Shown: positions 14,559 to 43,126, counted from the first letter of the stretch. The stretch: DNA of 64,000 nucleotides from Candidatus Kaiserbacteria bacterium (GCA_013204405.1 JABMNX010000040.1:1046-65045), one strand, 5' to 3'. Program-made: numbers and translations. Notes: generated by a model not told the origin, from the sequence alone.

Positions 14559-14602
14559 TACTAAGTGGACTATTTAGTGAATAGTTGTTCTAATAGATAA
14601 AA

Positions 14603-17752: not shown

Positions 17753-17872
17753 TTATGGAGACAAAAAAGAAAGTGGAATGGACAAAGGAAGAAAGAGACA
17801 GAATAGTCGGTTTCTTCGACCTTTTGATAAAAGTGGACAAGAGGCAAAATCCACATTTGTATAAAAAACAAA

Positions 17873-18520: not shown

Positions 18521-18552
18521 GTTTGTGTTGTAGATAAAAAATAACGAACCTA

Positions 18553-18585
18553 GAAAAGCCCTATGAAAGGGGCTTTTTTGTTTTG
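18553..18585 (+). terminator. rho-independent terminator
   Basis: GAAAAGCCC-tatgaaa-GGGGCTTTT followed by TTTTGTTTTG. Confidence 0.6.
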
Positions 18586-18961
18586 TATACCAAAAAAGGA
18601 CTATTAGGGACTACTAAACCTGACTGGGAAAATATACATAGCACAACCACTTCGTGTGCAGTGCTTACAAGAGAAAAAGAAGACACGGTGTTTCGGGGAA
18701 GTCCGTGGATAAATAAAAACTTCTCCGTAAACGGAAGCTCTCTTCAGGCACAAATGCGAACGCTGGGGAAAATGTTGACCACTCGTCCCAGCCGTCTAAT
18801 TTGTGTCGGAATGGAGTAGGTGTGGGGAATGCGAGAGGTCGTTCATTCCTATCACATCAACTTTCTTCTCTCACATAAAACAACTCACAAATCCTATTTA
18901 GTAGGAAAGTGGGGCATATGAACAAAACTAGAAAAATAAAGTCAAAGATTATATAATTACT

Positions 18962-19147
18962 ATGCTACGCGAGAACAGTCAACTTCATAATAAAAAAATT
19001 GAACCCAGAAAGGGGCAACGAACTTCCTCGCGTAGCAATGTGAGGTCTCGTTGTCCCTCTTTGCGTTATGATTTTGTTAAAGAAAATCAAGAGAATGTTA
19101 ATAGAGCTTTTGATGTCCTTTTTGAAGCTATTACAAACGTGAGATAA
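18962..19147 (+). CDS. small basic ORF (61 aa) directly upstream of the recombinase gene, a possible recombination directionality factor
   Basis: MLRENSQLHNKKIEPRKGQRTSSRSNVRSR... A TATAAT-like box lies at about 18952. No homology recognised. Confidence 0.2.
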   Translation: MLRENSQLHNKKIEPRKGQRTSSRSNVRSRCPSLRYDFVKENQENVNRAFDVLFEAITNVR

Positions 19148-19155
19148 TTTTATTT

Positions 19156-20769
19156 ATGAATACACCACAGAAAACAACTAAACTTATTGCTATGTATGCT
19201 CGTGTTTCAACCTCCCACCAAGAGGAAGAACAGACTATAGAAAACCAAATGAACGCAATGAAAGAGTATATTGAAGGTAAGGGGTATACCGTGGTGCGTG
19301 TGTATAAAGACGAAGGGTGGAGTGGTGATAGTCTTATACGCCCAGCTCTTGATAGATTAAGGCAAGACGCTAAAGACAAAATCTGGGAGGGTGTACTTAT
19401 ATATGACCCTGACAGACTGGCTCGTCGATACTCATATCAAGAACTTGTTTCTGACGAACTTAGAGAAGCGGGTATTGAAGTTATGTATGTTACGGTTTCA
19501 GCTCCTAAAAACAATGAAGACAAAATACTTCACGGAGTAAGAGGATTGTTTGCAGAATACGAGAGAGCAAAAATTACTGAAAGATTTAGGTTGGGTAAAC
19601 TACGTAAAATAAAGAATGGTCACATTTTAGTAAGTGAACCGCTGTATGGATATTCTTATGTACCCAAAAATGATAAACAGCACGGTTATTATGAAATTAA
19701 CGAACAAGAAGCTAGTGTTGTGAGGCAGATTTTTTCTTGGGTTGCAGACGAAAAAATGACATTACGAGGAATTGTTAGGAGGTTACAGAAAGAGAATATA
19801 AAACCACGAAAAAGTAAGCGTGGGGTTTGGAGTACAAGCACATTAAGCACAATGCTACGAAATGAGGCATACATTGGCGAGGCACACTGGGGCAGTTCTT
19901 ATGCTGTTATTCCAGAAAAGCCACTGAAGGAGGAAAAATATAAGAAGATAAAGAAAAGTAGTCGGAGAATAAAACCGAAAGAGGAATGGCTAATTATTCC
20001 TGTTCCAGTAATAGTTGGTAAAGATATCTTTGAGAGAACACGAGCACAACTGAAAAGGAACTTTGCGCAGTGTAAAAGAAACAAAAAGAACGATTATCTA
20101 CTGTCCAGTCTTATTTATTGTGAGTGTGGTCGTAGGAGGGCTGGGGAGGGGGCTATGAATGGTAAACATTTATATTATCGTTGTACTGATAGGGTACATA
20201 GTTTCCCGCTAGCACCGACTTGCAAGGAAGGAGGTATAAACGCGAGAGTGTCAGATAAATTAGTGTGGGAGAAAATCTCAAAGCTAATGACTTCACCTGA
20301 ATTATTGAATAAGCAAATTGAAAGGTGGAACAGAAGCCAGAAAACAAAAACTAGTGGGACTATATTTAATGTTGAGTCTTTGGAGACTGAATTAAATAAG
20401 CTAAAGAAACAGGAAGATAGATACAACAAAGCGTATGGTGCTGGAGCATTTAGTGTTGAGCAACTAAAGGAGTACACATCTCCTCTGAAACAGCATATTA
20501 GTGAGGTAGAGATACAAATTGCGGAAACAAGAGAACAAGAAAAAGAGCAAAAGATTAGTAAATTACCAAGTGAAGCAGATGCCAAAGTATTTGCAGAGAG
20601 GGTTAAAGAAAATATAAATAACTTGAACTTTTCCTCAAAACGAGAGATAGTATTGTCTGCGGTGGAGAAAATCGTAGGCACACAAGAAAAGTTATGTGTA
20701 TCTGGGTATATCCCCGTAGATAATTATGTCTCATTCAAAACTAACCATCGGAATCGTTGGACTCCCTAA
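19156..20769 (+). CDS. large serine recombinase (resolvase/invertase N-domain, recombinase domain and zinc-ribbon)
   Basis: IAMYARVSTSHQEE (catalytic Ser), LDRLARR-like DPDRLARRY, and C-x2-C...C cysteines (CECGRR...YYRCTDR). 537 aa. Confidence 0.85.
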   Translation: MNTPQKTTKLIAMYARVSTSHQEEEQTIENQMNAMKEYIEGKGYTVVRVYKDEGWSGDSLIRPALDRLRQDAKDKIWEGVLIYDPDRLARRYSYQELVSDELREAGIEVMYVTVSAPKNNEDKILHGVRGLFAEYERAKITERFRLGKLRKIKNGHILVSEPLYGYSYVPKNDKQHGYYEINEQEASVVRQIFSWVADEKMTLRGIVRRLQKENIKPRKSKRGVWSTSTLSTMLRNEAYIGEAHWGSSYAVIPEKPLKEEKYKKIKKSSRRIKPKEEWLIIPVPVIVGKDIFERTRAQLKRNFAQCKRNKKNDYLLSSLIYCECGRRRAGEGAMNGKHLYYRCTDRVHSFPLAPTCKEGGINARVSDKLVWEKISKLMTSPELLNKQIERWNRSQKTKTSGTIFNVESLETELNKLKKQEDRYNKAYGAGAFSVEQLKEYTSPLKQHISEVEIQIAETREQEKEQKISKLPSEADAKVFAERVKENINNLNFSSKREIVLSAVEKIVGTQEKLCVSGYIPVDNYVSFKTNHRNRWTP

Positions 20770-23495: not shown

Positions 23496-26400
23496 ATGGC
23501 ATCGTATAATCACGAAGAGATAGAAAAAAAATGGCAGAAAAAATGGAAAGAGTCTGGAATTTATGACACGGAGAATCGAGACACTACTAAGGGCAAAGAG
23601 TATGTTTTAGTAGAGTGGCCGTATCCATCAGGCAACCTCCATATTGGTCACTGGTTTGCTTTTGCTGTTGTTGATATATATGTACGAGCAAGACGGATGC
23701 ATGGAAAGCAGGTATTTTTCCCTATGGGGTTTGATGCGTTCGGTCTTCCTGCTGAGAATGCTGCAATAAAAAATAATTTAAATCCAAAAGAGTGGACCGA
23801 TAAAAATATCGCATACATGAAAGGGCAGTTAGAAAGTATGGGGAATGCGTTTTCTTGGGACAAGACAACTAGCTCAACTGATCCTGAATACTATAAGTGG
23901 ACCCAGTGGATGTTCACTAAGTTTTTTGAAAATGATATCGCATACCGAGGTGAAGGAATTGTAAACTGGTGCTCGAGCTGTAACACAGTACTTGCAAATG
24001 AACAGGTACTTCCCGAGGGAGACTGTGAGCGGTGTGGTAATCAGGTTGAAAAGAAAAAGATGGATGAGTGGAAGATGCGTATTACAAAATATGCAGATAG
24101 ACTCATTGATGATTTAGATTCACTCGATTGGCCTGAGTCAATAAAAGAGTCGCAGCGTAATTGGATAGGGCGAAGTGAAGGGGCAGAGATTGATTTTCCG
24201 CTTTCGCTATCTTTATATGGAGGTGAAGTTGTGTTTGCAACAAACAATCATGGGAAGCTCGAGCGAATGCAGAAACTTTTTGATGCTGCAGGGTTTTCAA
24301 TAAAATTAAAGACACCACTTGAAATTGGTGTTAAAGATTTTAATGTAGAAGAAGATAGACCGACACTTGAAGAAAATGCTGAAAAGAAGGCTCGTGCTCT
24401 TGCTGAAAAAACAGACCTTCCTGTACTGGCCGATGACAGCGGGTTCTTTATTGATGGAGAAGAGATTGACCCAGTAACAGTAAAAAGAAACGCACTTGCT
24501 GGACAGTCTGAAGAAGGTATGACTATCGAAGAGGTAGGAAATTTAATGATTACATACTATCAAAATGTCGCTAAAGCTCGAGGAGGGTCTGTTGATGCTG
24601 AATGGCATAATGCTTTTTGTCTAATTACATCAAAAAAAATAGTGTCACACACACAAACCACTCGTCCTGTTACACTTACAGACGAACCAAAAGGTGTAAT
24701 GAATCCATACCTACCACTTAGGTCTCTGTACATATCAAAAGTGACTGGGAAACACGTGCTTTTACAAAGTGATGAAGAGGAACTCGAAGAATTAAATCCA
24801 ATTATTAAAGGAATACAAAATTTATTTACACCATCGATCAAAGTGTTCACCACGCGTCCAGACACACTTTATGGAGCTACATACATGGTACTTGCTCCAG
24901 AACATCCGCTTGTAGAGAAATTTAAGGGTGTGGTATCTAATTGGGACGAAATAGAAGCGTATCAAAAAGAAACTGCAACAAAAGACGACATAGTTCGGAC
25001 GACAGAAAATAAAGAAAAGACCGGAGTCAAACTTGAGGGAGTCCTTGCTATTAACCCAGCAAACCAAGAAGAAATTCCAGTTTTTATAGCAGACTACGTA
25101 TTATCTGGATATGGTACAGGTGCAATCATGGCAGTTCCAGCGCATGATGAGCGAGATTTTGCTTTCGCGAAGAAATTTAAACTTGCTACTAAAGAGGTTG
25201 TTTCAAACAAGCTCACAGACGAAAATATTTTTACTGGAGAGGGTACTCTTATAAACTCTGGAGAATTTGATGGACTTACAAGCGAGGAAGCAAAAGGAAA
25301 AATAACAAAAAAAGTTGGGGGAGAAATGAAATCAACGTATAGGCTTCGCGACTGGTCTGTTGGCCGTCAGCGATATTGGGGAGTTCCTATTCCTATTGTG
25401 TATGACAAGGAAGGAAAGGCTCACCCTGTTCCAGAAAAACATCTTCCATGGCTTTTACCAGAAGATGTTGACTTTAGGCCTACAGGAGAGCCACCATTAG
25501 CTAAAAGTAAAGAGCTTCTTGAACGAACAGAAAAGATATTTGGAGATGGCTGGACCCCAGAGGTTGAGACCATGGACACATTTGTTGATTCTTCATGGTA
25601 TTTTCTTCGCTATATAGATAATGAAAACGGCACAGAGTTTTCTTCAATGGAGAAGCAAAAAGAGTGGATGCCGATAGATATTTACTTCGGCGGTGCTGAG
25701 CATACAACAATGCATCTTCTTTATTCTCGTTTCTGGCAAAAGGTTCTTTTTGATTTAGGGCTTGTAACAGAGAGTGAGCCGTATAAGAGGCGAATTAATC
25801 GTGGACTCGTTCTCGGACCTGACGGCAACAAGATGAGTAAGTCAAAAGGAAACGTTATTGATCCTGATGAACAAGTGAAACGTCTCGGGTCTGATGCTGT
25901 AAAGATGTATTTAGCATTTATGGGACCGTACGGAGAAACAACTAACTACCCGTGGGACCTCGGTGGCATTGTTGGAATTCGTCGTTTCCTAGAACGAGTA
26001 GATAAGATGATTGATAAAGAAAATATAATGGATTCCGAAGACGTACATCTTGAGAGGCATTTACATCAGACAATTAAGAAAGTGGGAGGAGACATTGAGT
26101 TATATAAATTTAATACAGCAATATCTCAACTCATGATTTTTCTTAATCAAATGCAGACTCTTAAGGTAAGTAAAAATACACTCGAAATATTCCTTAGACT
26201 TCTTGCTCCATTTGCTCCACATCTCACAGAAGAACTCTGGGAGAGGCTGGGAAATATGACCTCAATCCACCTAGAAGAATGGCCCGAATTTGATGAATCA
26301 AAGCTTGTCTCTGACACAGTATCCATTGCTGTGCAGATACATGGGAAGGTGAGGGGGTTAGTAGAAAGTCCTTCTGGGTCAAGCGAAGACGAGGTTCTTG

Positions 26401-26498
26401 CTTTGGTTCGAAAGGATGAGGGTCTTTCTAAGTGGATAGAGGGGGAGCCAAAGAGGGTGATATATGTTGAGAATAAGCTTATTAATCTAGTGTTTTAA
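23496..26498 (+). CDS. leuS: leucyl-tRNA synthetase carrying a ~210-aa insertion with a Ham1/RdgB (ITPase)-like domain
   Basis: HIGH motif PSGNLHIGH. ZN-1 knuckle CSSC...CERC. NWIGRSEGAEIDF. T-rich VFTTRPDTLYGATYMVLAPEH. Editing motif GTGAIMAVPAHDERD. KMSKS motif NKMSKSKGN. Between GAEIDFPL and VFTTRPDTL lie residues ~237-447 (nt ~24204-24837). In that insert, EVVFATNNHGK, EEDRPTLEENAEKKAR, LPVLADDSG and EWHNAFCLI align to RdgB/Ham1 motifs. Confidence 0.9.
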   Translation: MASYNHEEIEKKWQKKWKESGIYDTENRDTTKGKEYVLVEWPYPSGNLHIGHWFAFAVVDIYVRARRMHGKQVFFPMGFDAFGLPAENAAIKNNLNPKEWTDKNIAYMKGQLESMGNAFSWDKTTSSTDPEYYKWTQWMFTKFFENDIAYRGEGIVNWCSSCNTVLANEQVLPEGDCERCGNQVEKKKMDEWKMRITKYADRLIDDLDSLDWPESIKESQRNWIGRSEGAEIDFPLSLSLYGGEVVFATNNHGKLERMQKLFDAAGFSIKLKTPLEIGVKDFNVEEDRPTLEENAEKKARALAEKTDLPVLADDSGFFIDGEEIDPVTVKRNALAGQSEEGMTIEEVGNLMITYYQNVAKARGGSVDAEWHNAFCLITSKKIVSHTQTTRPVTLTDEPKGVMNPYLPLRSLYISKVTGKHVLLQSDEEELEELNPIIKGIQNLFTPSIKVFTTRPDTLYGATYMVLAPEHPLVEKFKGVVSNWDEIEAYQKETATKDDIVRTTENKEKTGVKLEGVLAINPANQEEIPVFIADYVLSGYGTGAIMAVPAHDERDFAFAKKFKLATKEVVSNKLTDENIFTGEGTLINSGEFDGLTSEEAKGKITKKVGGEMKSTYRLRDWSVGRQRYWGVPIPIVYDKEGKAHPVPEKHLPWLLPEDVDFRPTGEPPLAKSKELLERTEKIFGDGWTPEVETMDTFVDSSWYFLRYIDNENGTEFSSMEKQKEWMPIDIYFGGAEHTTMHLLYSRFWQKVLFDLGLVTESEPYKRRINRGLVLGPDGNKMSKSKGNVIDPDEQVKRLGSDAVKMYLAFMGPYGETTNYPWDLGGIVGIRRFLERVDKMIDKENIMDSEDVHLERHLHQTIKKVGGDIELYKFNTAISQLMIFLNQMQTLKVSKNTLEIFLRLLAPFAPHLTEELWERLGNMTSIHLEEWPEFDESKLVSDTVSIAVQIHGKVRGLVESPSGSSEDEVLALVRKDEGLSKWIEGEPKRVIYVENKLINLVF

Positions 26499-30160: not shown

Positions 30161-31219
30161 GTGAATAAAATAAGTGGCAAAACAGTATTTGTTGGTGTGA
30201 GTGGCGGGGTGGACTCGTCTGTTTCTGCTGCACTTCTTAAAGATCAGGGATATACAGTAATTGGTGTTTTTATTAAGGTGTGGCAGCCTGTGTTTTTGAA
30301 ATGTGATTGGGAAAAAGAACGAACCGATGCAATGCGGGTGTGTGCTCGACTTGATATACCGTTTATAACTCTCGACTTAGAGCACGAGTATAAAGAAGAG
30401 GTTGCAGATTATATGATTTCTGAATATAAAAACGGACGGACTCCTAACCCTGACGTTATGTGTAATAAATATATTAAGTTTGGAAGTTTTCTTTCATTTG
30501 CAAAAGAAAAAGGTGCAGACTACATAGCCACTGGTCACTATGCTCAAGTAAAAGAGGTTGGTGGTGAGTACGTAATGTTTCAGGGTGTAGATAGTAATAA
30601 AGACCAATCATATTTTCTATGGACACTTGGGCAATATGAACTTGGCTCAGTACTATTTCCTGTTGGTGGATACAAAAAGGACAGTGTACGTAAGCTCGCT
30701 AAAGAATACAATTTATTAACCGCAGATAAAAAAGACAGTCAAGGAATTTGTTTTTTGGGTCATGTGGACCTTGAGGAATTTCTTGGTCATTACATAGACC
30801 TTAAAGAAGGTGAGGTGTTTAATACAAAAGGGGAAGTGGTAGGGGTACACAATGGGTCTGAGCTCTACACAATGGGACAGCGTCACGGTTTTACAATCAA
30901 CGAAAAAGATACAGATAGAGAACCGTACTATGTTGTGTCTAAAGACATTGAGAAGAACACAGTAACTGTCTCTCATGAACCCAACGACAAAGATTTTAAT
31001 AAAAAAGAAGTTTCTCTTGAGGGAGTTAATTGGATAACAAATCCTCCAAAAGATGGAAAAGAGTACCAAGCACGCATCAGACACCGCGGAGAGCTACATT
31101 CGTGCACAGTCAGTGGCAGTTCTGTGGTCTTTAAAGAACCACAGCACGGACTCGCTCCTGGACAGTCTTTGGTTTTGTTTGATAAAAAAAGGTGTATAGG
31201 AGGTGGGATTGTTTCTTGA
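30161..31219 (+). CDS. mnmA: tRNA-specific 2-thiouridylase MnmA
   Basis: PP-loop VFVGVSGGVDSSVSAALL. Family-typical CNKYIKF and ATGHYA motifs. Confidence 0.9.
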   Translation: MNKISGKTVFVGVSGGVDSSVSAALLKDQGYTVIGVFIKVWQPVFLKCDWEKERTDAMRVCARLDIPFITLDLEHEYKEEVADYMISEYKNGRTPNPDVMCNKYIKFGSFLSFAKEKGADYIATGHYAQVKEVGGEYVMFQGVDSNKDQSYFLWTLGQYELGSVLFPVGGYKKDSVRKLAKEYNLLTADKKDSQGICFLGHVDLEEFLGHYIDLKEGEVFNTKGEVVGVHNGSELYTMGQRHGFTINEKDTDREPYYVVSKDIEKNTVTVSHEPNDKDFNKKEVSLEGVNWITNPPKDGKEYQARIRHRGELHSCTVSGSSVVFKEPQHGLAPGQSLVLFDKKRCIGGGIVS

Positions 31220-31231
31220 TAGACTATTCTT

Positions 31232-32065
31232 ATGACCGAAGAGATTCTTATTAAAAAGACCGATGGGAGCACGGAGGCCTTTGATGCGTCAAAGTTGGAA
31301 GGTTCTCTAAAGCGTGCTGGGGCGTCAGAATCTATCATAAAAGAGATTGTAGACAAGGTGAACTCCAAACTTGTTCCAGGCATGACTACTAAAGAGATTT
31401 ATCAAGACGCTTTTGAGCTGCTTCGTGATAAAGAAGAAAAACCTATTGCTGCGAAATATTCTCTTAAAAAAGCTGTTTTTGAACTTGGTCCAAGTGGTTT
31501 TCCTTTTGAGGATTTTATAACAGAAATTTTTCGAGCAACTGGTCACGAAGCATCTAATGGAGTCATTATGGCAGGGAAGTGCGCAGAGCATGAGGTGGAT
31601 ATGTTCGCTGTGCACAAGGGAGGTAAACGGCATGGTGCAGAAATAAAATTTCACAACCACCCAGGAATTAAGACTGACCTTAAAGTAGCTTTGTATGTCC
31701 ATGCACGATTTGATGACCTTATTAAAGGCGGGAAGGTGGATGAAGGGGTCCTTATTACAAATACACGATTTACCAGTAATGCCCTTGAATATGGTAAGTG
31801 TGCAGGACTTAAGATGATTAGTTGGAATTACCCAGAAAAAGATAACCTGTATTCACTCATTGAAGAAACGGGACTGCATCCAATTACATGCCTCACTACT
31901 ATTCCTGATAGAAATAAGAAAATACTCATTGATAATGAAATAGTATTGTGTCGATCTATTAGGGAGAATGCAAGTGTGCTCAGTGAATACGGAGTTCCAG
32001 TAGACCGTATTCCAAGCATACTTGAGGAAGTAGGTTCCTTGTGCCAACCGGGTGCTGGAGTGTAG
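31232..32065 (+). CDS. ATP-cone domain fused to a restriction-endonuclease-like (Mrr-cat-type) domain
   Basis: N-terminal ILIKKTDGSTEAFDASKLEGSLKRAG resembles an NrdR-like ATP-cone. The C-terminal half has a restriction-endonuclease-like core (GAEIKFH...VDEGVLITNTRFT). Confidence 0.55.
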   Translation: MTEEILIKKTDGSTEAFDASKLEGSLKRAGASESIIKEIVDKVNSKLVPGMTTKEIYQDAFELLRDKEEKPIAAKYSLKKAVFELGPSGFPFEDFITEIFRATGHEASNGVIMAGKCAEHEVDMFAVHKGGKRHGAEIKFHNHPGIKTDLKVALYVHARFDDLIKGGKVDEGVLITNTRFTSNALEYGKCAGLKMISWNYPEKDNLYSLIEETGLHPITCLTTIPDRNKKILIDNEIVLCRSIRENASVLSEYGVPVDRIPSILEEVGSLCQPGAGV

Positions 32066-32093
32066 AATGGACCATATCAGTAAATATACACGC

Positions 32094-32618
32094 ATGAATA
32101 CCATGACAGGAAATCAGAATATTAAGCTAATTGGAGTATTTCTCATAGGGGTAGTGGTTGGGAGTTTTTCTCTATGGATGTGGACTGCAACACAAGATGC
32201 TCTTTCTAAAGAAACAGAAGAAGGTTTGGTAATAAATAAAGAAGCTTCCAAAGACCAAAATACTGTTGCTCAAAATTTAAATACAGAGGAAACACAACTC
32301 TATAGTGATTCAATAGTAGTTCGAAACCAAGCACATGGGGCGTCAGTCATTGTAGAGAAGGCTCGTTTTGAAGAAGATGGATGGGTAGTGATTCATGAGG
32401 GGACCGTAAGTCAGATTGGAAATGCACTTGGAGCTGTTCGGTTTGACGCAGGGGAGCACAGTGGTGTTGTTGAGTTATTACGGTCAACTGAAGTGGGTAA
32501 TGTATACCGCGCTGTACTGTATCGAGATAACGGAGATAAGGAGTTTAGCCTTGATAGTGATTTCCCGTTTCTTCGTGATGGGAATCAACCCATCCTCACC
32601 ACATTTAGTGTAGAATAA
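32094..32618 (+). CDS. hypothetical membrane-anchored secreted protein
   Basis: Internal ATG (MNTMTGNQNIKLIGVFLIGVVVGSF signal anchor) of ORF 32052..32618. Confidence 0.45.
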   Translation: MNTMTGNQNIKLIGVFLIGVVVGSFSLWMWTATQDALSKETEEGLVINKEASKDQNTVAQNLNTEETQLYSDSIVVRNQAHGASVIVEKARFEEDGWVVIHEGTVSQIGNALGAVRFDAGEHSGVVELLRSTEVGNVYRAVLYRDNGDKEFSLDSDFPFLRDGNQPILTTFSVE

Positions 32619-32638
32619 TATTATTATAGATAATAATT

Positions 32639-33148
32639 ATGGAACCAGTATTTTTTAATTCGACACTTGTAATATTTGGGCAGCTCATCCTAGCAATTCT
32701 TTTAGGAATGACGCTTGGAACAGAGCGTTCTGTTATTGCTAATAAGCGAGCTGGTACACGAACGTATTCACTTGTCGCCCTTGGATCGTGTCTATTTTCT
32801 ATTATTTCAATTCAAGTAACAAGCCAATATCTCGGACTTGTTTCCTTTGACCCAATGCGTGTTACTGCAGGGATTATTACTGGTATTGGTTTCTTAGGTG
32901 CTGGAATTATCATCTTTAAGGACAGTACACTTCAAGGGCTCACTACCGCTGCAGGACTTTGGGTGTCTGCTGGGATAGGTGTAGCGGTTGCCTTTAGTCT
33001 TTATGCTATAGCTATTTTTACAACAATTCTTACGCTTCTCGTGTTTACGGTATTATGGTTTGTGGAAAATAAACTCGATATGTTCTTTGATGAACAGAGT
33101 CGCATACGACTCGTAAAAAATAAGGAAGCTACGGAGCCACGAGATTAG
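32639..33148 (+). CDS. mgtC: MgtC/SapB family membrane protein
   Basis: LGMTLGTERSVIANKRAGTRTYSLVALGSC matches the MgtC signature. Confidence 0.8.
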   Translation: MEPVFFNSTLVIFGQLILAILLGMTLGTERSVIANKRAGTRTYSLVALGSCLFSIISIQVTSQYLGLVSFDPMRVTAGIITGIGFLGAGIIIFKDSTLQGLTTAAGLWVSAGIGVAVAFSLYAIAIFTTILTLLVFTVLWFVENKLDMFFDEQSRIRLVKNKEATEPRD

Positions 33149-35074: not shown

Positions 35075-35623
35075 ATGAAAAAGACCAACAAGGAATTGAA
35101 TAAAAAAATAGAGGCTAAATCTATGGAAAACTACAGAAAAATTACCATCGGAGTAATGGGCTCATGGAGTGCAACCGATAAGGAAAACAAGAATGCAGAG
35201 ACACTGGGGAAGCTTATAGCTAATAAAGGCTGGGTAACTCTATCTGGTGGAGAGCCTGGTGGAGTGATGCAAGCAGTCTCTAAGGGTGCAAAAGAAGCTG
35301 ATGGATGGGTGGTTGGGATTTTACCCCAAACATCAGATAAACCCTATTCAGAATATCTAGACGTTGCAATATTTACCAACGCTTCAGCTGGACGAAACTA
35401 CTTCAATATACTTTCGTCAGATGTTGTGATTATCGCTTCAAAATTATCTGCTGGTACCTTAATGGAGGCTACTACAGCACTGAGGTTGAAGAAGCCAATA
35501 GTTGTGCTCAACAACAACAAAAAAGACCAAGAACTTTTGAAAGACAGGGGGAAAAAGCTTGTTTCAATTGCAAAATCCCCAGAAGACGTAATACGTCTGT
35601 GTGAAAAATTCCTAGAGAAATAA
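35075..35623 (+). CDS. LOG/SLOG-family (TIGR00725-like) Rossmann-fold protein
   Basis: ITIGVMGSW...VTLSGGEPGGVMQAVSKGAKEADGWVVGILP matches the LOG/SLOG family. Confidence 0.6.
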   Translation: MKKTNKELNKKIEAKSMENYRKITIGVMGSWSATDKENKNAETLGKLIANKGWVTLSGGEPGGVMQAVSKGAKEADGWVVGILPQTSDKPYSEYLDVAIFTNASAGRNYFNILSSDVVIIASKLSAGTLMEATTALRLKKPIVVLNNNKKDQELLKDRGKKLVSIAKSPEDVIRLCEKFLEK

Positions 35624-35685
35624 GCTTCAAAGAAAGTGAGTGAGTTAACTAAACTGCCAGAGTATCTAGGCCGTTTTTTGTTTTC

Positions 35686-36564
35686 TTGTATGATATACTG
35701 TCTCTAATTATGGGAGCATTTTACAATCCAAATAGAGGAGCTGGTTGGAACTATGGTGGCAATAAATGGCGCCTTTCTCGTTCTAAAATAGACCTTTTTA
35801 TTTCATGTCCCCGGTGTTTTTGGCTTGATAACAAACTTGGAACCAAACGTCCTCCAGGGTACCCATTTAACTTAAATATTGCAGTTGATACGCTCTTAAA
35901 GAAAGAGTTTGATATTCACCGTCAGAATAAAACTCCACATCCGTTTATGGAAGAGTATGGAATTGATGCGGTTCCATTTCAGCACACTGATATGGACTTA
36001 TGGCGAGACAACTTCAAAGGGATTCAATGCTTACACGAACCTACAGGACTTACTGTTTCTGGAGCAGTGGATGATGTGTGGGTATCCCCAAGCGGTGAGT
36101 TAATTATTGTTGACTATAAAGCGACCAGTAAGAACGATGAAGTAAATCTCGATGCAGAGTGGCAAGACGGATACAAACGTCAGATGGAAGTATACCAATG
36201 GCTCTTCCGAAAAAACGGATTCAAGGTTTCAGACACTGGATATTTTGTATATGTGAATGGTAAAACTGATGTTGAGAAATTCGACGCAAAACTAGAATTT
36301 GATATTAAACTTCTCCCATATACTGGAAGTGACAATTGGATTGATGTGGTACTTGGTAAGGTTAAAAATTGTCTTGAGTCAGATTCAATTCCTGAAGTTG
36401 GAGAAGGGTGTGACTATTGCCCATACAGAGAAGTAGCAGGAAAGAAATTACAAGCTATACATTTAGCCAAAACTAAGACTTCAGAGAAACTTGAAGTGAA
36501 AGAGAAAAAAGAGGCTAAAAAAGAGGTAAAAGAAGAACAAGTTGATACTGGCACATTATTTTAA
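35686..36564 (+). CDS. PD-(D/E)xK nuclease, Cas4/RecB-like, with a C-terminal Fe-S cysteine cluster
   Basis: IIVDYKATS (D..K), QMEVYQWL (QxxxY) and C-terminal EGCDYCPY, plus an N-terminal CPRC. Not adjacent to any CRISPR array. Confidence 0.65.
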   Translation: MYDILSLIMGAFYNPNRGAGWNYGGNKWRLSRSKIDLFISCPRCFWLDNKLGTKRPPGYPFNLNIAVDTLLKKEFDIHRQNKTPHPFMEEYGIDAVPFQHTDMDLWRDNFKGIQCLHEPTGLTVSGAVDDVWVSPSGELIIVDYKATSKNDEVNLDAEWQDGYKRQMEVYQWLFRKNGFKVSDTGYFVYVNGKTDVEKFDAKLEFDIKLLPYTGSDNWIDVVLGKVKNCLESDSIPEVGEGCDYCPYREVAGKKLQAIHLAKTKTSEKLEVKEKKEAKKEVKEEQVDTGTLF

Positions 36565-36566
36565 TT

Positions 36567-37025
36567 ATGCACGGACTTGATACTGAGCAACAAATATTTT
36601 TTTATGAACAAGAGTTCTATGTATTTTCAAACTTTTCTTCATTTAAACTCGAATGGAAAGGAGAGATGTGGATGACCTCTGAACACGCATATCATTCAGA
36701 AAAATTTGAAGATGAAGACATATTAGAGCAACTCAGAAATAGTAGTTCTGCTCATGATTCTATGAAGATTGCATACGCGTATAAAGATAAGTACAGGAAG
36801 AATTGGGATGAAGTAAAGCTTCAGGTAATGAAAGATATTTTACATGCGAAAGTTGAACAGCATCCATACGTAAAAAAGAAGTTACTTGAGTCGGGAGACA
36901 AGGAACTTATAGAAAATTCATGGAGGGACGATTTTTGGGGATGGGGGCCCAATAAAGACGGAAATAATCAACTAGGGAAACTCTGGATGGAAGTTCGTGA
37001 TGAAGTACGTTCTCACATTAATTAA
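36567..37025 (+). CDS. NADAR-family (YbiA-like) protein
   Basis: FYVFSNFS...MTSEHAYHSEKF...KLQVMKDILHAKVEQHPYVKKKLLESG...WGWGPNKDGNNQLGKLWM matches the NADAR pattern. Confidence 0.75.
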   Translation: MHGLDTEQQIFFYEQEFYVFSNFSSFKLEWKGEMWMTSEHAYHSEKFEDEDILEQLRNSSSAHDSMKIAYAYKDKYRKNWDEVKLQVMKDILHAKVEQHPYVKKKLLESGDKELIENSWRDDFWGWGPNKDGNNQLGKLWMEVRDEVRSHIN

Positions 37026-37059
37026 ATACGTATTTAAATACACACTTAATCAGTTTCAT

Positions 37060-37305
37060 ATGTTCACAGAAAAAGTATTAGAAGTTGTAAAAAGTATTCC
37101 AAAAGGGAAGACACTTTCGTATAAAGAGGTTGCGGAGAAAGCTGGGTCTCCAAAAGCATATCGAAAAGTTGGAAGTCTTATGAAGGCAAACTACGACGCT
37201 ACTGTGCCGTGTCACCGAGTCATCAAGTCTGATGGTTCTCTTGGAGCGTATAACCGCGGTGCTGATTTAAAATATAAAAAATTAAAAGAAGAGGGAGCTC
37301 TTTAG
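37060..37305 (+). CDS. MGMT-family DNA-binding protein (O6-alkylguanine-DNA alkyltransferase C-domain with PCHR cysteine)
   Basis: Internal ATG of ORF 36997..37305. IPKGKTLSYKEVAEKAGSPKAYRKVGSLMKAN...VPCHRVIKSDGSLGAY. Confidence 0.75.
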   Translation: MFTEKVLEVVKSIPKGKTLSYKEVAEKAGSPKAYRKVGSLMKANYDATVPCHRVIKSDGSLGAYNRGADLKYKKLKEEGAL

Positions 37306-37982
37306 GAACACCAGTCGATTTCTTTGCTGTTATATTCCTTTAGGTACACATTCGCAAGTTTAAAGTGATTACATCCAAGAAACCCCCTATGTGCTGAAAG
37401 TGGAGAGGGGTGAGGAGCCATGAGGACAAGATGTTTATCTGTATCTATAAGTTGTGATTTCTCTTGAGCGTATGCTCCCCAAAGCATAAACACAACGTGG
37501 CTATTATTGTCTGAAACTGCAGATATAACAGCGTCTGTGAATTTGTGCCACCCATAATCGGCGTGAGAATTTGCAACTCCTTCACGAACTGAAAGTGACG
37601 TATTGAGAAGAAAGACACCTTGTTTCGCAAAACGCGTAAGGTCAGGGTTATGGTTACAGAGGTTGTCATACTCTAAATCTATTTCTTTAAACACATTTTG
37701 TAGCGAGGGAGGAACTTTGTTTTTTGAGTCAGTTGAAAATGCGAGTCCGTCAGCAACTCCGGGTGTATGGTAGGGGTCTTGTCCAAGTATAACGACACGA
37801 ACATCTGTTGGTAAACATAACTCAAACGCTCGAAAAACTTGCTTTGGTGGGGGATACACTATTTTGTTAAGATATTCTTCTCTAACCTTCAAAGTAAGAC
37901 CTTTAAAATACAATTTATCGAATTCTTCAGTGAGAAGATTCTTCCACTCAACAGGTATGTGGATTTTGTGTGATTCCACCAT
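37302..37982 (-). CDS. ung: uracil-DNA glycosylase (family 1)
   Basis: VVILGQDPYH and APHPSPLSAH motifs. Start set at MVESHKIHIP by alignment to Ung. The ORF remains open up to 38087. Confidence 0.85.
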   Translation of the reverse strand: MVESHKIHIPVEWKNLLTEEFDKLYFKGLTLKVREEYLNKIVYPPPKQVFRAFELCLPTDVRVVILGQDPYHTPGVADGLAFSTDSKNKVPPSLQNVFKEIDLEYDNLCNHNPDLTRFAKQGVFLLNTSLSVREGVANSHADYGWHKFTDAVISAVSDNNSHVVFMLWGAYAQEKSQLIDTDKHLVLMAPHPSPLSAHRGFLGCNHFKLANVYLKEYNSKEIDWCS

Positions 37983-38033
37983 ATACATATAGTGTAGCAG
38001 TAGAGTCTCCCCTCTGCTATGATGCTCTAACAT

Positions 38034-38615
38034 ATGATCCATACTCCACAAATAGAAAAAGCAATTCATAAAGCTTCTCTCTTGCACAGGAAACAGGTGC
38101 GGAAAGGTGAGGACGAACTACCGTACATTACTCACTTGTTTTCAGTATTTGTTATTTTGACGAAATATACCAAAGATGAAGACGTCCTAATTTCAGGGCT
38201 TTTGCATGACACACTTGAAGATACCCCGTACACAGCTGAAGAGCTTGAGCGAGACTTTGGACCTCGAGTTCGGAGTATTGTTGAGGGTGTATCTGAACAA
38301 AAGACCAAAGACGGAATAGTAATTGAGTGGGAAGATAGAAAAAGGGGATATGTACAAGGTCTTGAAACAGGTCCAGAGGAATCTTTATACGTTTCAGCGG
38401 CGGATAAAATCCATAACTTTCAGTCGACACTTGACTCATATAAGGATAATAAAGAAGGGTATAAAAAAGATTTTGTATCAAAAGACAGAGTCTTATTTTA
38501 TGGCTCGGTCGTCGAGGTAATAGCGAGGCGCCTGGGGGATAATCATCCACTTTCTGTGCGGTTACAAGAAATGTTTAATAGCTATAAAGATTTTTTGAAA
38601 AGTGTGTATAATTAA
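38034..38615 (+). CDS. HD-domain hydrolase, RelA/SpoT-type (p)ppGpp hydrolase-like
   Basis: AIHKASLLHRKQVRKGEDELPYITHLFSVFVIL...ISGLLHDTLEDT matches the HD(4) signature. Confidence 0.7.
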   Translation: MIHTPQIEKAIHKASLLHRKQVRKGEDELPYITHLFSVFVILTKYTKDEDVLISGLLHDTLEDTPYTAEELERDFGPRVRSIVEGVSEQKTKDGIVIEWEDRKRGYVQGLETGPEESLYVSAADKIHNFQSTLDSYKDNKEGYKKDFVSKDRVLFYGSVVEVIARRLGDNHPLSVRLQEMFNSYKDFLKSVYN

Positions 38616-38621
38616 AAAATC

Positions 38622-39044
38622 ATGTGGTTATTTTATGCATTTCTTTCAGCAATAATGGCGGCGTTAGTCGCAATTTTTGCTAAGCTTGGATTGAAGGAAC
38701 TAGACTCAACACTTGCAACTACTATTCGTGCAATTATCATGGCTTTGTTTTTGGTTCTTGTAAGTTTTTTCTTGAACAAATTTGATGGATTTTCTGTTAC
38801 TAATTTAAGTTCAAAGGAATGGCTTTTGATATCACTTGCTGGTATTGCAGGTGCGCTATCATGGCTTTTTTATTTCTTTGCCCTTAAAACAGGTTTTGCT
38901 ACTGAAGTTGTAGCAATTGATAGGCTCTCAATTGTCTTTGTTGTTATACTTGCCGCACTTTTTCTTGGCGAAGGGTTTGGATGGAAAGTAATCCTTGGGG
39001 CGCTTTTCATGACAGCAGGTGCAATTTTAATAACACTTAAATAG
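38622..39044 (+). CDS. EamA-domain (DMT superfamily) small membrane transporter
   Basis: 140 aa with four TM helices and an EamA-like profile (FAKLGLKE...). Confidence 0.55.
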   Translation: MWLFYAFLSAIMAALVAIFAKLGLKELDSTLATTIRAIIMALFLVLVSFFLNKFDGFSVTNLSSKEWLLISLAGIAGALSWLFYFFALKTGFATEVVAIDRLSIVFVVILAALFLGEGFGWKVILGALFMTAGAILITLK

Positions 39045-39046
39045 AG

Positions 39047-40996
39047 TTACCAAATTTTCACTCGGTCTTTAGGTTTCCTATATAATTTATCTCCTTTAGT
39101 TAGTTTAAATGCTTCATAAAACTCAGGTAAATTTGACATTGGACCATTCACTCGAAATATTGGTCGTGAATGAGAATCTACAAGAGCCAATGTTCGAATA
39201 ACCTCTGGACGTTCGTGCCCACATTCGAAAATTGTTACACCTAAAAAGAATCGCTGTTCCGGTGTAAAATCCTGTATTATTTTCCCTGTAGTGTGTTTAA
39301 GATGTTCTTTGTATGCATCATAAGCAATACTAATACCACCAAGATCCGCAATGTTTTCTCCAAGAGTCATCTTTCCATCCATTTTTACGTTACCTATTTT
39401 AAATTGGTTAAACTGGGCAACGAGAGGTTTTGTTTTTTCTTCAAAACGCTTCTTGTCTCCCTTTGTCCACCAGTTATGAAAGTTTCCATTGTGGTCAAAT
39501 TTTGCTCCTGAATCATCAAATCCATGCGTGATTTCATGTCCAATAATAGCTCCGATAGAACCATAGTTAATTGCATCATCAGCATTCGGATCAAAGAATG
39601 GTGGTTGTAGGATTCCAGCAGGGAAGACTATTTCATTCATATTTGGATCATAAAATGCATTAACAGTTTGAGGTGTTGTGAACCACTCTTTTTTATCTAC
39701 TTTTTTGTCCAGTTTTTTGAACGCTTTATTTTTTTCAAATCCTATAGACCGAATAACATTCTCAACATACGTACCAGGTTTAATTGTGAGTCCACTGTAA
39801 GATTTCCACTTGTCAGGGTAACCAAGTTTTCGTGTCATATGTTTGAGTTTTAAAAGAGCTTTTTTCTTTGTAGATGCTGTCATCCACTCATTACTTTGTA
39901 TCCTCTTTTTGTACGCAACAAACAAGTGGTCAACTAGCTCATTTACTTTTTCTTTCGCTTCTGGTGGAAAATAGGTTTTCACGTACTCTTTACCAATAGC
40001 TTCTCCAATATTATTTTCTAGAACACCAATAACCCTCTTCCACTCAGGTTCAGACTGTTTTTGTCCAGTAAGTGTTTTTCCATAGAATTCAAATCGAATA
40101 TTTATAAAATCTTTCGAAAGTAATGAGCCAAAACCGTCAATTATCTGCCACCGTAGATACATTTTCCATATTGAAATAGGTACCGACTCAATCATCTGTG
40201 AAGCTTCTTTTAGATATTCTGGTTGCGTTACAACCACCTCTGTTGCTTTCTTAAGTCCAACCTCATCTAAAAATGCCCTCCAATCAACAGAAGGAGCAAT
40301 TTTTTGTAATTGAGGGAGTGTCTTTTTATTGTAGAGTTTTTCAATGTCCCGAGAATCAACTTTATCCATAGAGGCTTTAGCTAGTCTTTTTTCAAACGCA
40401 AAAATTGAATCTGCATTCCTAGAGGCTTCTTTTTTAGGAATATTTACAAGGACTAAAGTTTCCAAAATATATTTCTTAAAAGCTTTCTGTATACGTATGG
40501 ATTCGTTATCTTTTTTAAGGTAAAAGTCTCTATCAGGCAACGTTAGTCCATTCTGGTATAGAAATGTGTTATGAACCTCCCCATTTTTGTCATCTTGAGC
40601 AACTGTTGTTCCCCATAGAAGTGAAAACCCTTTTGCATGTTCTTGTGTGATAAATTTAACTATTTCTTCTGGGGAGGTAATCCTCTCTATGCAATCAAGT
40701 AGATGTTGTATAGGAAGAATTCCAAGTTTGTTTCTAACATTCATGTTTAAACCAGAGCGGTAGAAATCCCTTGTTAACTGTTCTTCAGATCCATTTTTTA
40801 TATTTTTTTTCTTTGAGTTTTTCTCAATAACCTTTTTTATCTTTTTTAATCCATCTTCACGAAGTATGAAGAAGGTACCCCATTTTGATTTTGTTGGGGG
40901 AATTGGATTGTTTTTAATCCACACCCCGCAAGAGAACTTAAAAAAATCATCCTGTGGGCGAACTGTAGTATCAATGTTTTTAAAGTATGACTTCAT
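39047..40996 (-). CDS. pepO: M13 family zinc metalloendopeptidase (neprilysin/PepO-like)
   Basis: HEITHGFDD (HExxH) and GENIADLGG (ExxxD). 649 aa. Confidence 0.9.
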   Translation of the reverse strand: MKSYFKNIDTTVRPQDDFFKFSCGVWIKNNPIPPTKSKWGTFFILREDGLKKIKKVIEKNSKKKNIKNGSEEQLTRDFYRSGLNMNVRNKLGILPIQHLLDCIERITSPEEIVKFITQEHAKGFSLLWGTTVAQDDKNGEVHNTFLYQNGLTLPDRDFYLKKDNESIRIQKAFKKYILETLVLVNIPKKEASRNADSIFAFEKRLAKASMDKVDSRDIEKLYNKKTLPQLQKIAPSVDWRAFLDEVGLKKATEVVVTQPEYLKEASQMIESVPISIWKMYLRWQIIDGFGSLLSKDFINIRFEFYGKTLTGQKQSEPEWKRVIGVLENNIGEAIGKEYVKTYFPPEAKEKVNELVDHLFVAYKKRIQSNEWMTASTKKKALLKLKHMTRKLGYPDKWKSYSGLTIKPGTYVENVIRSIGFEKNKAFKKLDKKVDKKEWFTTPQTVNAFYDPNMNEIVFPAGILQPPFFDPNADDAINYGSIGAIIGHEITHGFDDSGAKFDHNGNFHNWWTKGDKKRFEEKTKPLVAQFNQFKIGNVKMDGKMTLGENIADLGGISIAYDAYKEHLKHTTGKIIQDFTPEQRFFLGVTIFECGHERPEVIRTLALVDSHSRPIFRVNGPMSNLPEFYEAFKLTKGDKLYRKPKDRVKIW

Positions 40997-41061
40997 AGTA
41001 ATTTATTACCAGAGATAATAGCATGTTTTCATAAAAAAGAAGTGATATACTAATACGTATT

Positions 41062-41277
41062 ATGGATTTACTTTTTTGGGGAATGACAATTAGTGTAGTT
41101 GGTAAAGTACTTCTTGGAGTCACTGTGATTAGAGTGCATTCTAAGATAGTACACGAACACAAGGTTGATGGGGCAGTGCTTAAAGAGATGCGGAAAGAGA
41201 AGATTCTTGCAATTCTTGGGGTATTCTTTATGGTAGTAGGATATATTCTCGAAGCGATGTTCTATGGATACTTCTGA
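41062..41277 (+). CDS. small hypothetical membrane protein
   Basis: 71 aa with two TM helices. Confidence 0.35.
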   Translation: MDLLFWGMTISVVGKVLLGVTVIRVHSKIVHEHKVDGAVLKEMRKEKILAILGVFFMVVGYILEAMFYGYF

Positions 41278-43126
41278 AATTAGAAAGAAATACTTTACAT
41301 TTTTTGAAAAAAAAGGGCATACGGTAATTCCTTCAGCTTCTCTGCGCCCAGAGAATGACCCCACTACTCTATTTGTTGGATCAGGTATGCAACCACTACT
41401 GCCATATCTACTCGGTGAAAAACATCCCAGGGGTGTTCGGTTGGTAAACTCACAAAAAAGTTTTCGAGCTGAAGATATAGAAGAAGTAGGAGACAATCGT
41501 CACACAACATTTTTTGAAATGCTCGGAAACTGGTCTTTAGGCGATTACTTTAAAAAGGAACAGCTTCCATGGGCTTTTGAGTTTTTAACTGAAGAAATAG
41601 GACTTAACCCAGAAAAACTTTACGTTACTGTCTTTATAGGTGATGAGACTCTTGGTATTCCAAAAGACACGGAGTCAGTTCAAATCTGGAAAGGACTTTT
41701 TAAAGAAAAAGGGATAGAGGCTATTGATATAGAGATAGGTTCTGAAGAGGATGGATATGCAAAAGGAATGCAACAAGGAGACAAAGAGGGAAGAATTTTT
41801 TATTATGACGCAAAGAAAAATTGGTGGAGCCGTTCTGGCACTCCAGACAAGATGCCTGTGGGTGAGCCAGGAGGTCCTGACTCAGAAATGTTTTATGACT
41901 TTGGAACAGAGCACAATACAAGTTTTGGTGAACACTGCCATCCTAATTGCGACTGCGGTCGTTTTATGGAAATCGGAAACTCTGTGTTTATGGAGTACAT
42001 CAAAAAAGAAGATGGAAGTTTTGTACAATTGCCACAGAAGAATGTTGACTTTGGTGGAGGACTAGAGAGAATTGCCGCAGCAACAAATGGTAATTCGGAC
42101 ATATTTTTAATAGACACGCTACAAGTAATTATAGAATATATCGAGAAGACCTCTGGGAAAAAATATGATGATACTCGATATACACACGCTTTCCGTGTTA
42201 TCGCTGACCACATCCGAGCCGCTATTTTTATTATTGCTGACGGAGTGGTGCCTTCAAATTCTGAACAAGGGTATTTTGTACGACGGTTGATTCGTCGAGC
42301 AGTTCGGTATGCTGATTTACTTGGGGTACCAGATGGTGTTCTCGCTGCTTCGGTAACTGCAGTGAGTGGCACATACAAAGACCAATATGAAATTCTTCTA
42401 GAGAAGGGCGGTGAGATTGCTGGAATAATTGCAGCTGAAGAAGAGAAGTTTCGAAAAACACTAACGAGAGGACTCAAAGAGTTTGAAAAACTAAGCAATA
42501 ATAATATATCAGGAAACGATGCTTTTATACTTTTTACTACGTACGGATTCCCATATGAACTAACTGAAGAGCTTGCAGAGGAAAAAGGAATATCAGTAGA
42601 TAGGAAAGGTTTTGATGTAGAGATGAAAAAACACCAAGAACTTTCCCGTAGTGGTTCAGAACAAAAGTTTAAAGGTGGATTAGTTGACCATGGGGAAATG
42701 AGTATTAAATACCATACCGCGACACATCTTCTTAACCAAGCACTTCGCAATGTTCTTGGAAATTCTGTACAGCAGAAAGGAAGTAATATCACACCGGAGC
42801 GTATGCGTTTTGATTTTTCATTTGACCGTAAGATGACTGACGAGGAAAAAAAGAAAGTTGAGGATATTGTAAATGAACACATAAAAGCGGCTATTGTAGT
42901 GACAAATCAGGAACTACCACTTGAAGAAGCAAAAAAACTTGGCGCCATAGGCTTGTTTGAAGAAAAGTACGGAGATGTTGTAAAAGTATATACAATAGGG
43001 GATTTTAGCCTTGAGTTTTGTGGAGGTCCTCACGTGACAAACACAAGCCAACTTGGACACTTTAAAATAGTAAAAGAAGAATCAATCTCAGCAGGAGTGC
43101 GTCGTATTCGTGCGGTTCTAGAATAA
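41264..43126 (+). CDS. alaS: alanyl-tRNA synthetase, short form ending after the editing domain (no C-Ala domain)
   Basis: FTFFEKKGHTVIPSASL...FFEMLGNWSLGDYFK matches class II AlaRS. Editing-domain HxxxH and CGGPHV motifs present. 620 aa. Confidence 0.9.
   Translation: MDTSEIRKKYFTFFEKKGHTVIPSASLRPENDPTTLFVGSGMQPLLPYLLGEKHPRGVRLVNSQKSFRAEDIEEVGDNRHTTFFEMLGNWSLGDYFKKEQLPWAFEFLTEEIGLNPEKLYVTVFIGDETLGIPKDTESVQIWKGLFKEKGIEAIDIEIGSEEDGYAKGMQQGDKEGRIFYYDAKKNWWSRSGTPDKMPVGEPGGPDSEMFYDFGTEHNTSFGEHCHPNCDCGRFMEIGNSVFMEYIKKEDGSFVQLPQKNVDFGGGLERIAAATNGNSDIFLIDTLQVIIEYIEKTSGKKYDDTRYTHAFRVIADHIRAAIFIIADGVVPSNSEQGYFVRRLIRRAVRYADLLGVPDGVLAASVTAVSGTYKDQYEILLEKGGEIAGIIAAEEEKFRKTLTRGLKEFEKLSNNNISGNDAFILFTTYGFPYELTEELAEEKGISVDRKGFDVEMKKHQELSRSGSEQKFKGGLVDHGEMSIKYHTATHLLNQALRNVLGNSVQQKGSNITPERMRFDFSFDRKMTDEEKKKVEDIVNEHIKAAIVVTNQELPLEEAKKLGAIGLFEEKYGDVVKVYTIGDFSLEFCGGPHVTNTSQLGHFKIVKEESISAGVRRIRAVLE

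Follow-up and report, generated by a model that had tools for sequence, protein, structure and literature searches.

Standalone Cas4-like nucleases are known to be common in CPR (candidate phyla radiation) genomes, where their role has been given as 'defence or repair' (Hudaiberdiev et al. 2017, PMC5704561). Among NADAR proteins, linkage to the toxin DarT has been reported only for the BC4488/Asp subfamily, YbiA-type members are mostly stand-alone, and one YbiA has an adjoining ADP-ribosyltransferase (ART) toxin, YarT (PMC11125620, PMC11543638). Every NADAR subtype tested in vitro, YbiA included, hydrolyses ADP-ribosylated guanine (ADPr-guanine), in-vitro activity being no predictor of in-vivo protection, and E. 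coli K-12 ybiA lies within a LexA-controlled DNA-damage operon (PMC11125620); orphan NADARs are also carried by phages as counter-defence (PMC11257639). The molybdenum cofactor (Moco) carrier proteins have a LOG fold (PMC7470044). Here we analysed a run of six genes in a 64-kb stretch of a Candidatus Kaiserbacteria genome (GCA_013204405.1, JABMNX010000040.1:1046-65045; the whole stretch of 64,000 nucleotides is called the window below), which encodes, in this order, a SLOG (LOG-fold) protein, a Cas4-like PD-(D/E)xK nuclease, a NADAR protein, an O6-alkylguanine alkyltransferase-like protein (MGMT), a uracil-DNA glycosylase (UDG) of family 1 (UNG) and an HD hydrolase. Listing of the open reading frames (ORFs) and scans with hidden Markov models (HMMs) placed the run exactly at 35075-38615. 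A sequence-only reading had proposed that it may be a DNA-modification or ADP-ribosylation countermeasure island, or else a coincidental clustering in a compact genome.

Comparison with related genomes indicated that the six genes are not one system, and the countermeasure island was refuted: the genes are not co-conserved in relatives and no DarT or ART domain, for which that reading had advised a search nearby, was found in the window. Only the nuclease, MGMT and UDG genes, syntenic in about 27 related genomes, are associated more often than by chance, not the six-gene set. We favour, at a probability of roughly 0.75, the explanation that nuclease, MGMT and UDG form a lineage-specific repair array occupying a variable slot of the core genome, to which the NADAR gene, the HD gene together with an EamA transporter gene, and the SLOG gene were added independently. 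For these additions coincidental clustering was the right description. The sequence-only reading had also remarked on three DNA-lesion enzymes, correctly and with some understatement, these three being conserved and often operon-like in the lineage.

Gene order around the nuclease in related genomes

Two surveys were made. The first comprised 80 species-representative genome loci from many Patescibacteria groups, anchored on the nuclease with flanks of 10 kb on either side; nuclease-anchored relatives amounted to 84 in all, and gene tables were compared for the close ones L082, L083, L085 and L166. The second comprised 80 metagenome loci anchored on NADARs 54-81% identical to that of the window. 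Loci of the first survey were searched by tblastn with the window proteins, and all their ORFs were then searched with NADAR and SLOG HMMs and, for the other genes, with phmmer, which agreed with the tblastn counts. Among the 80 species-representative loci, tblastn found alaS in 20 (3-7 kb downstream of the nuclease), MGMT in 18, UNG in 6 and HD in 2, and neither SLOG nor NADAR in any. The full six-gene set was confined to the window's own genome.

Clustering of the neighbouring genes revealed that about one third of the 80 loci share the order DUF8128-yceG-mnmA-ATPcone-(mgtC)-nuclease...alaS, and that the rest have unrelated neighbours. The relatives sharing this backbone number approximately 27; in 19 of them MGMT is the next gene after the nuclease, and a UDG comes after in 17, the UDG slot being taken by a family-1 UNG in 9 and by a family-4 UDG in 8 (PF03167 111 bits; TIGR00758 189-194 bits, cut-off 125). 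In six relatives (L002, L003, L011, L027, L033 and L048) the three genes lie on the same strand with gaps of no more than 25 bp, an arrangement that looks like an operon. Outside the backbone lineage MGMT was near the nuclease in 2 of about 56 loci and a UDG in about 2 of about 56, which is close to the chance level judged for an interval of ±8 kb in a genome of ~800 genes, and the trio is therefore a lineage-specific array. The neighbour-joining tree of the nuclease was too weakly resolved for counting switches between UDG families, and no number of events is claimed.

The closest relatives differ in what surrounds the trio. L083 (82% nuclease identity) has DUF8173-142aa-ApbE-NUC-NADAR-MGMT-UNG(-)-HD-EamA-M13(-)-alaS and no SLOG; L166 (76%) has SLOG-NUC-MGMT and no NADAR; L085 (77%) has mgtC-NUC-MGMT-UNG(-)-EamA-M16(-)-alaS; and L082 (89%) has DUF8173-NUC-UNG(-)-M3-alaS. 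All four combinations of presence and absence of SLOG and NADAR thus occur among the window and its close relatives. A NADAR was found at the nuclease locus in just one of the 84 relatives (L083), a close SLOG homologue beside the nuclease in just one (L166, directly upstream as in the window) and HD in L083 and L002 only. In the slot between nuclease and alaS (37302-40996 in the window; loci L002-L085), analogous genes are replaced in situ, the peptidase being M13, M3 or M16 and the UDG of family 1 or 4, in varying combinations and orientations. Such a pattern suggests that the slot is variable and prone to recombination, the core region being otherwise collinear.

The window itself is part of a compact Patescibacteria (Kaiserbacteria/Paceibacteria-like) chromosome with nearly all genes on one strand, and proteins identical to its nuclease and its SLOG protein are recorded for a 'Candidatus Kaiserbacteria' assembly. 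Core genes lie upstream of the cluster (sigma factor, DUF8128, yceG, mnmA, ATP-cone/Mrr_cat, DUF7282, mgtC, DUF8173) and downstream (EamA, M13 peptidase, alaS, ribosomal proteins, rpoA). A horizontally acquired mobile or defence island would agree with the differing gene content of the slot among close relatives and with the presence of true defence genes elsewhere in the window, and is nevertheless barely credible here: the cluster genes (GC 0.36-0.40, in a window of 0.35-0.41) resemble their neighbours in GC and in GC at third codon positions, no integrase, tRNA or repeat boundary was found at the locus, the core genes on either side keep their order in relatives, and orthologues of the cluster genes in L083 are 81-84% identical, on a par with the flanks. 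The closest recombinase (19156-20769) lies 14 kb off, with core genes between. We rejected a defence island on composition, flanks and synteny.

Spacing within the window is 12 bp from DUF8173 to SLOG, 86 bp from SLOG to the nuclease, 2 bp from the nuclease to NADAR and 34 bp from NADAR to MGMT. MGMT and ung are convergent with stop codons overlapping by 4 bp, and ung and the HD gene are divergent, with ~45 bp between their starts. The genes for nuclease, NADAR and MGMT are the most of the cluster that could share one transcript, and ung falls outside it; we infer their co-transcription, as we do all activities discussed below, from the gene content, homology and synteny observed. Scanning for consensus promoters and terminators was uninformative, the sites not exceeding those of shuffled sequence, and was given no weight on operon boundaries.

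These features bear on whether even nuclease, MGMT and UDG might be pure coincidence, an inherited order in a compact genome with neither co-regulation nor functional coupling. The association is limited to one lineage sharing the whole mnmA...alaS backbone, ung in the window is encoded on the other strand and the promoter and terminator scans did no better than shuffled sequence, all of which agree with such a view. It has to be set against the tight same-strand trio of several relatives, against the sharing of the slot after MGMT by two UDG families that are non-homologous at the sequence level, and against the fact that nuclease, MGMT and UDG all act on damaged DNA. On balance we consider coincidence unlikely for the trio, and functional coupling of its members plausible.

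The six proteins and their predicted activities

All six domain calls of the sequence-only reading held on HMM comparison, each passing a curated threshold or matching a solved structure (Table 1). This applies to the SLOG fold, the standalone nuclease with its four-cysteine cluster, the NADAR domain, the MGMT-like protein with its PCHR cysteine and the SpoT-type HD hydrolase. What did not stand were the assignment of the SLOG protein to TIGR00725 (94.5 bits, below the cut-off of 106.9) and the description of ung as divergent, the protein being a canonical family-1 enzyme; the NADAR belongs to the YbiA/Glu and not to the DarT-linked BC4488/Asp subfamily. Scanning essentially all ORFs of at least 100 aa in the 64-kb window against Pfam detected no ADP-ribosyltransferase or DarT domain, neither Cas1 nor Cas2 and no nucleotide cyclase or synthetase; nor was a RelA/SpoT synthetase, a Moco pathway, a tRNA or a CRISPR-like repeat array seen in the window.

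The likely start of the nuclease is the ATG at 35710, matching the gene calls of relatives. An exact-sequence look-up of the 292-aa, TTG-initiated ORF found no match, because gene callers take that ATG, and the 284-aa form is on record. Cas4 models remained below their cut-offs (TIGR00372 29.7 bits against 65; PF01930 18.6 against 22.7). Since a sequence search of the PDB gave no match, the structure was predicted, and the AF2 model, built from 36 homologues (pLDDT 78.8), matched Cas4, AdnAB, RecE, Exo5, AddB and Dna2 in Foldseek with probabilities of 0.99-1.0. Residues C33, C36, C234, C237, D121, D135, K137, Q158 and Y162 are invariant in the 36 homologues, and both the RecB-like motifs (D, D/ExK, QxxxY) and the four-cysteine site of the Cas4/AddB/Exo5-type fold are present. 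The cysteines are arranged 2+2 (CxxC...CxxC); the arrangement in Cas4 and AddB is 1+3. Homologues number more than 8000, the best 120 listed being 62-100% identical, and identity ranges from 53 to 73% over the 80 genome loci and reaches 89% in the closest relative, L082. The nuclease is vertically inherited and found across, indeed nearly universally in, the Patescibacteria. A role in CRISPR adaptation was rejected, there being no cas1, cas2 or array in the window.

The MGMT protein aligns to residues 97-174 of Ada-C, including PCHRV, and starts most probably at 37060 according to the gene calls of relatives. Of the two-domain Ogt/Ada-C architecture it has the C-terminal domain with PCHR, the N-terminal domain being absent as in the orthologues. 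The UNG, whose likely start at 37988 was set in the same way, matches E. coli Ung (1EUG) with 221.6 bits and has both GQDPYH and HPSPLS. Each enzyme of the run most likely does its family's usual job, judging by homology and by the catalytic residues it keeps: the nuclease would resect or process DNA ends, the MGMT protein would transfer alkyl groups from O6-alkylguanine onto its cysteine and the UNG would remove uracil. The conserved unit would then be a base-damage repair array, made of a solo Cas4-like nuclease, a single-domain O6-alkylguanine alkyltransferase and a uracil-DNA glycosylase, flanked in the core genome by mnmA/ATP-cone/mgtC on one side and alaS on the other. Accessory 'damage-control' genes have probably been gained or lost at this slot independently, a YbiA-type NADAR having presumably been inserted between nuclease and MGMT, a small alarmone hydrolase with the EamA transporter after ung, and a Moco carrier protein (MCP)-like SLOG protein before the nuclease.

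The best solved relative of the NADAR is E. coli YbiA (2B3W, 93.6 bits). Its 'LIENS' aligns to the 'LVEHT' of YbiA with the glutamate retained, the SEH and IENS glutamates are both present, and the sequence begins at the YbiA core; on this evidence the protein is of the YbiA/Glu subfamily, without the N-terminal extension seen in DarT1-linked NADARs. It carries SEH, IENS, RDD and FWGWG, equivalent to E43, E125, D130 and W133, residues reported as catalytic or ligand-binding in the P. nicotianae enzyme (PMC11543638). By family, it would most likely cleave an N-glycosidic bond, either in by-products of the riboflavin pathway or between ADP-ribose and guanine. In the second survey, MGMT, UNG, HD and SLOG were found in none of the 80 NADAR-anchored loci and the nuclease in one, 3 kb away; no recurrent broad neighbour or partner family emerged from these 80 loci. 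The CPR-like loci L087, L088 and L092 had the recurrent neighbours N5, N6 and N4, which by eye, with no HMM check, resemble pseudouridine synthase, ribosomal protein L19 and cobalamin adenosyltransferase, and some other NADAR-anchored loci were phage-like in appearance.

The retained active-site residues would suit an orphan, antitoxin-like DNA de-ADP-ribosylase, co-transcribed with nuclease and MGMT and directed against ART toxins of hosts, competitors or phages, with the lesion enzymes finishing the repair. The ADPr-guanine hydrolase activity of YbiA-type NADARs in vitro, the LexA-controlled operon of E. coli ybiA (both PMC11125620), the counter-defence NADARs of phages (PMC11257639) and the position of the gene just after the nuclease and just before MGMT all speak for it. 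They are met, however, by the lack of any ART or DarT domain in the window, by a YbiA/Glu sequence devoid of the N-terminal extension that scores 68.5 bits with the anti-phage NADAR model NF053876 (cut-off 240), by the presence of NADAR at the locus in a single relative with its 54-81% identical homologues in unrelated and in part housekeeping contexts, by the failure of in-vitro activity to predict protection in vivo (PMC11125620) and by the curated name of TIGR02464, riboflavin-intermediate N-glycosidase. Taken together, this role appears rather unlikely. Also improbable, in our estimation, is a further proposal: that in one Paceibacteria lineage the CPR-wide nuclease is the processing nuclease of a dedicated base-adduct repair operon (nuclease-MGMT-UDG, the UDG being replaceable in situ) and that the window's sub-lineage has recruited a YbiA-type NADAR against ADP-ribose-guanine adducts. 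If true, an episymbiont would be protected, by an orphan immunity of 'antitoxin-like' kind, from toxins of hosts or phages that ADP-ribosylate DNA.

Among solved structures the SLOG protein is matched best, over its full length, by two Moco carrier proteins, 6Y01 with 121 bits and 2IZ5 with 90 bits. It probably binds a phosphorylated, nucleotide-like ligand, judging from this homology. A word-based search retrieved 12 homologues, the best 75% identical (L166) and the next 44%, and the distant ones occupy unrelated, non-defence contexts. We considered whether the protein might sense a signalling nucleotide and activate the adjacent PD-(D/E)xK nuclease, as in SLOG-containing CBASS-like systems. 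Its place immediately upstream of the nuclease both in the window and in L166, and weak, partial PADLOC matches (PsyrA 38.6 bits, positions 133-277 of 398; ShosA 30 bits), are in keeping with this. Such pairing is made highly improbable by the single relative out of 84 in which a close SLOG adjoins the nuclease, by the lack of a nucleotide cyclase or synthetase in the window, by the standalone architecture and the Moco carriers as nearest characterised relatives, by the non-defence contexts of distant homologues and by the 86-bp spacer. We rejected the sensor/effector pair on the 0 of 80 adjacencies and the missing cyclase; the SLOG gene was added upstream of the nuclease in a restricted lineage. 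A distant SLOG-superfamily ORF of L066 (Saccharimonadia; 7471-8202, minus strand), scoring 41 bits with the SLOG profile, is located ~2 kb upstream of the nuclease and in opposite orientation to it, and is probably a DprA/LOG-type housekeeping gene.

The HD protein, which comprises the SpoT hydrolase domain only, is matched by TIGR00691 at N-terminal positions 3-129 alone and by the small alarmone hydrolase 7QOC with 118 bits, the HDxxED and ADKxHN motifs being aligned (LLHDTLED, AADKIHN). It would accordingly be expected, as far as homology goes, to hydrolyse (p)ppGpp-type alarmones. The EamA gene paired with it, also present in L083 and L085, is context and lies outside any system.

Certain observations weigh against the repair array with independent additions as we have described it. 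Outside the lineage the nuclease shows no enrichment of MGMT or UDG, and therefore inherited gene order alone could explain the trio. The occurrence of family-1 and family-4 UDGs in one and the same slot hints at selection for the array. The NADAR gene is tightly packed, 2 bp from the nuclease and 34 bp from MGMT, in both genomes that have it, as would be expected had it been recruited to a transcript for DNA-adduct repair rather than inserted neutrally. Finally, the ART search spans 64 kb of the genome and an ART gene may lie elsewhere, and Pfam gave no match for about a dozen ORFs of the window.

Other features of the window

Table 1 Features of the 64-kb window (positions counted from its first nucleotide; bit scores with cut-offs in brackets)
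Feature	Position	Strand	Size and evidence
SLOG/LDcluster4 (LOG-fold) protein	35075..35623	+	182 aa; PF18306 143.6 bits (26.3)
Solo Cas4-like PD-(D/E)xK nuclease	35710..36564	+	284 aa; PF12705 53.8 bits; CxxC...CxxC
NADAR, YbiA subfamily	36567..37025	+	152 aa; PF08719 103 bits (35.1); TIGR02464 97.8 (73.7)
MGMT/Ogt C-terminal domain protein	37060..37305	+	81 aa; PF01035 94 bits; TIGR00589 75.5 (46.4)
Family-1 uracil-DNA glycosylase	37302..37988	-	228 aa; NF003589 288.7 (223); TIGR00628 259.8 (185.75)
Small alarmone hydrolase-type HD protein	38034..38615	+	193 aa; PF13328 50.1 bits
EamA-family half-transporter	38622..39044	+	140 aa; PF00892 72.3 bits
Upstream backbone: mnmA, ATP-cone/Mrr_cat, DUF7282, mgtC	30161..33148	+	Pfam; same order 5' of the nuclease in ~25 related genomes
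Downstream backbone: M13 peptidase (-), conserved 71-aa ORF, alaS (+)	39047..43126	mixed	Pfam
ATP-cone/Mrr_cat gene	31232-32065		277 aa
Small ORF before alaS	41062-41277		71 aa; no Pfam match
DUF4268 protein	9140-10090		Pfam
Type I restriction-modification operon: hsdM	10282-11844		
Type I restriction-modification operon: DUF4145 gene	11841-12476		
Type I restriction-modification operon: hsdS	12477-13637		
Type I restriction-modification operon: Abi_C-domain gene	13647-14558		
Type I restriction-modification operon: hsdR	14603-17752		
Large serine recombinase	19156-20769		
Leucyl-tRNA synthetase	23496-26498		1000 aa
Type II restriction-modification: Eco47II-family restriction endonuclease	60297-61004		
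Type II restriction-modification: C5 cytosine methyltransferase, N-terminal MerR-type HTH	61008-62312		

Two genes of the backbone deserve mention. In the upstream part, an ATP-cone is fused to an Mrr_cat restriction-endonuclease-like domain in a protein that has no NCBIfam name and whose gene is kept just upstream of the nuclease region in at least 21 related genomes. Downstream, the small ORF shares 14 bp with the start of alaS, and a gene of 71-76 aa is found at the equivalent position before alaS in L082, L083 and L085.

The actual defence and mobility region of the window is at 9140-20769, with the DUF4268 gene, the Type I operon and the recombinase, 14 kb from the cluster and separated from it by core genes; a Type II system is also present (Table 1). 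The leucyl-tRNA synthetase has an insert at about residues 244-325 that matches the N-terminal part of RdgB/HAM1 non-canonical NTP pyrophosphatases (PF01725 55.6 bits; NF011397 53 bits), and its orthologue in L085 shows a NUDIX match in place of RdgB/HAM1. A nucleotide house-cleaning domain within a CPR leucyl-tRNA synthetase is unusual.

Comparison with described systems

The gene families found here, of housekeeping and damage control, are already known, and their adjacency is mostly lineage-specific gene order. The locus may serve as a worked example that SLOG or NADAR genes beside repair genes in compact CPR genomes need the support of synteny before they are read as a conflict system. SLOG-containing nucleotide-centred conflict systems, a class reportedly described by Burroughs et al. 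in 2015, share the superfamily domain with the window protein, which by contrast is standalone and lacks a fused or conserved effector, a nucleotide-generating enzyme and a conserved neighbourhood. The combination of SLOG with an effector and a nucleotide-generating or partner gene, typical of CBASS-like, PsyrTA and Shosta systems, was absent, no partner genes being found. Of characterised proteins, the Moco carriers CrMCP (2IZ5) and RoMCP (6Y01) come closest to the SLOG protein, the locus differing in that the window showed no Moco pathway; metabolism is generally reduced in CPR bacteria. The HD protein resembles the small alarmone hydrolases, Mesh1-like single-domain SpoT hydrolases, in having one HD_4 domain, ~190 aa and both motifs, but no RelA/SpoT synthetase was seen to accompany it in the window.

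DarTG1 (DarT1-NADAR) has in common with the window a NADAR-fold hydrolase whose catalytic core is conserved. It differs in its adjacent DarT (DUF4433-type ART) gene, where the window NADAR is flanked by the PF12705 nuclease and the PF01035 MGMT protein, and in the BC4488-type aspartate and N-terminal DNA-binding extension, in place of which the window has a bare protein of YbiA/Glu type. The ART-fold gene located directly downstream in YarT-YbiA has no counterpart either, the downstream gene here being that of the 81-aa MGMT. Closer is E. coli K-12 YbiA, likewise a 'naked' YbiA domain of similar length that passes TIGR02464 and has DNA-damage genes as neighbours; those neighbours are dinG and ybiB, in the LexA-regulated dinG-ybiB-ybiA region, rather than a Cas4-like nuclease and MGMT, and no LexA box was identified in the window.

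The nearest counterpart of the conserved part of the locus is provided by the solo Cas4 nucleases of CPR bacteria (PMC5704561), with which the window nuclease shares the standalone Cas4 fold, the absence of CRISPR-Cas, vertical inheritance and over-representation in small genomes. It departs from them in matching PF12705, with PF01930 below its cut-off, and in its CxxC...CxxC cysteines, and also in its MGMT and UDG neighbours, which are kept in one lineage and point to repair over defence. A solo Cas4-like nuclease arrayed with MGMT and UDG in this lineage thus provides a small piece of context evidence in favour of a role in DNA repair.

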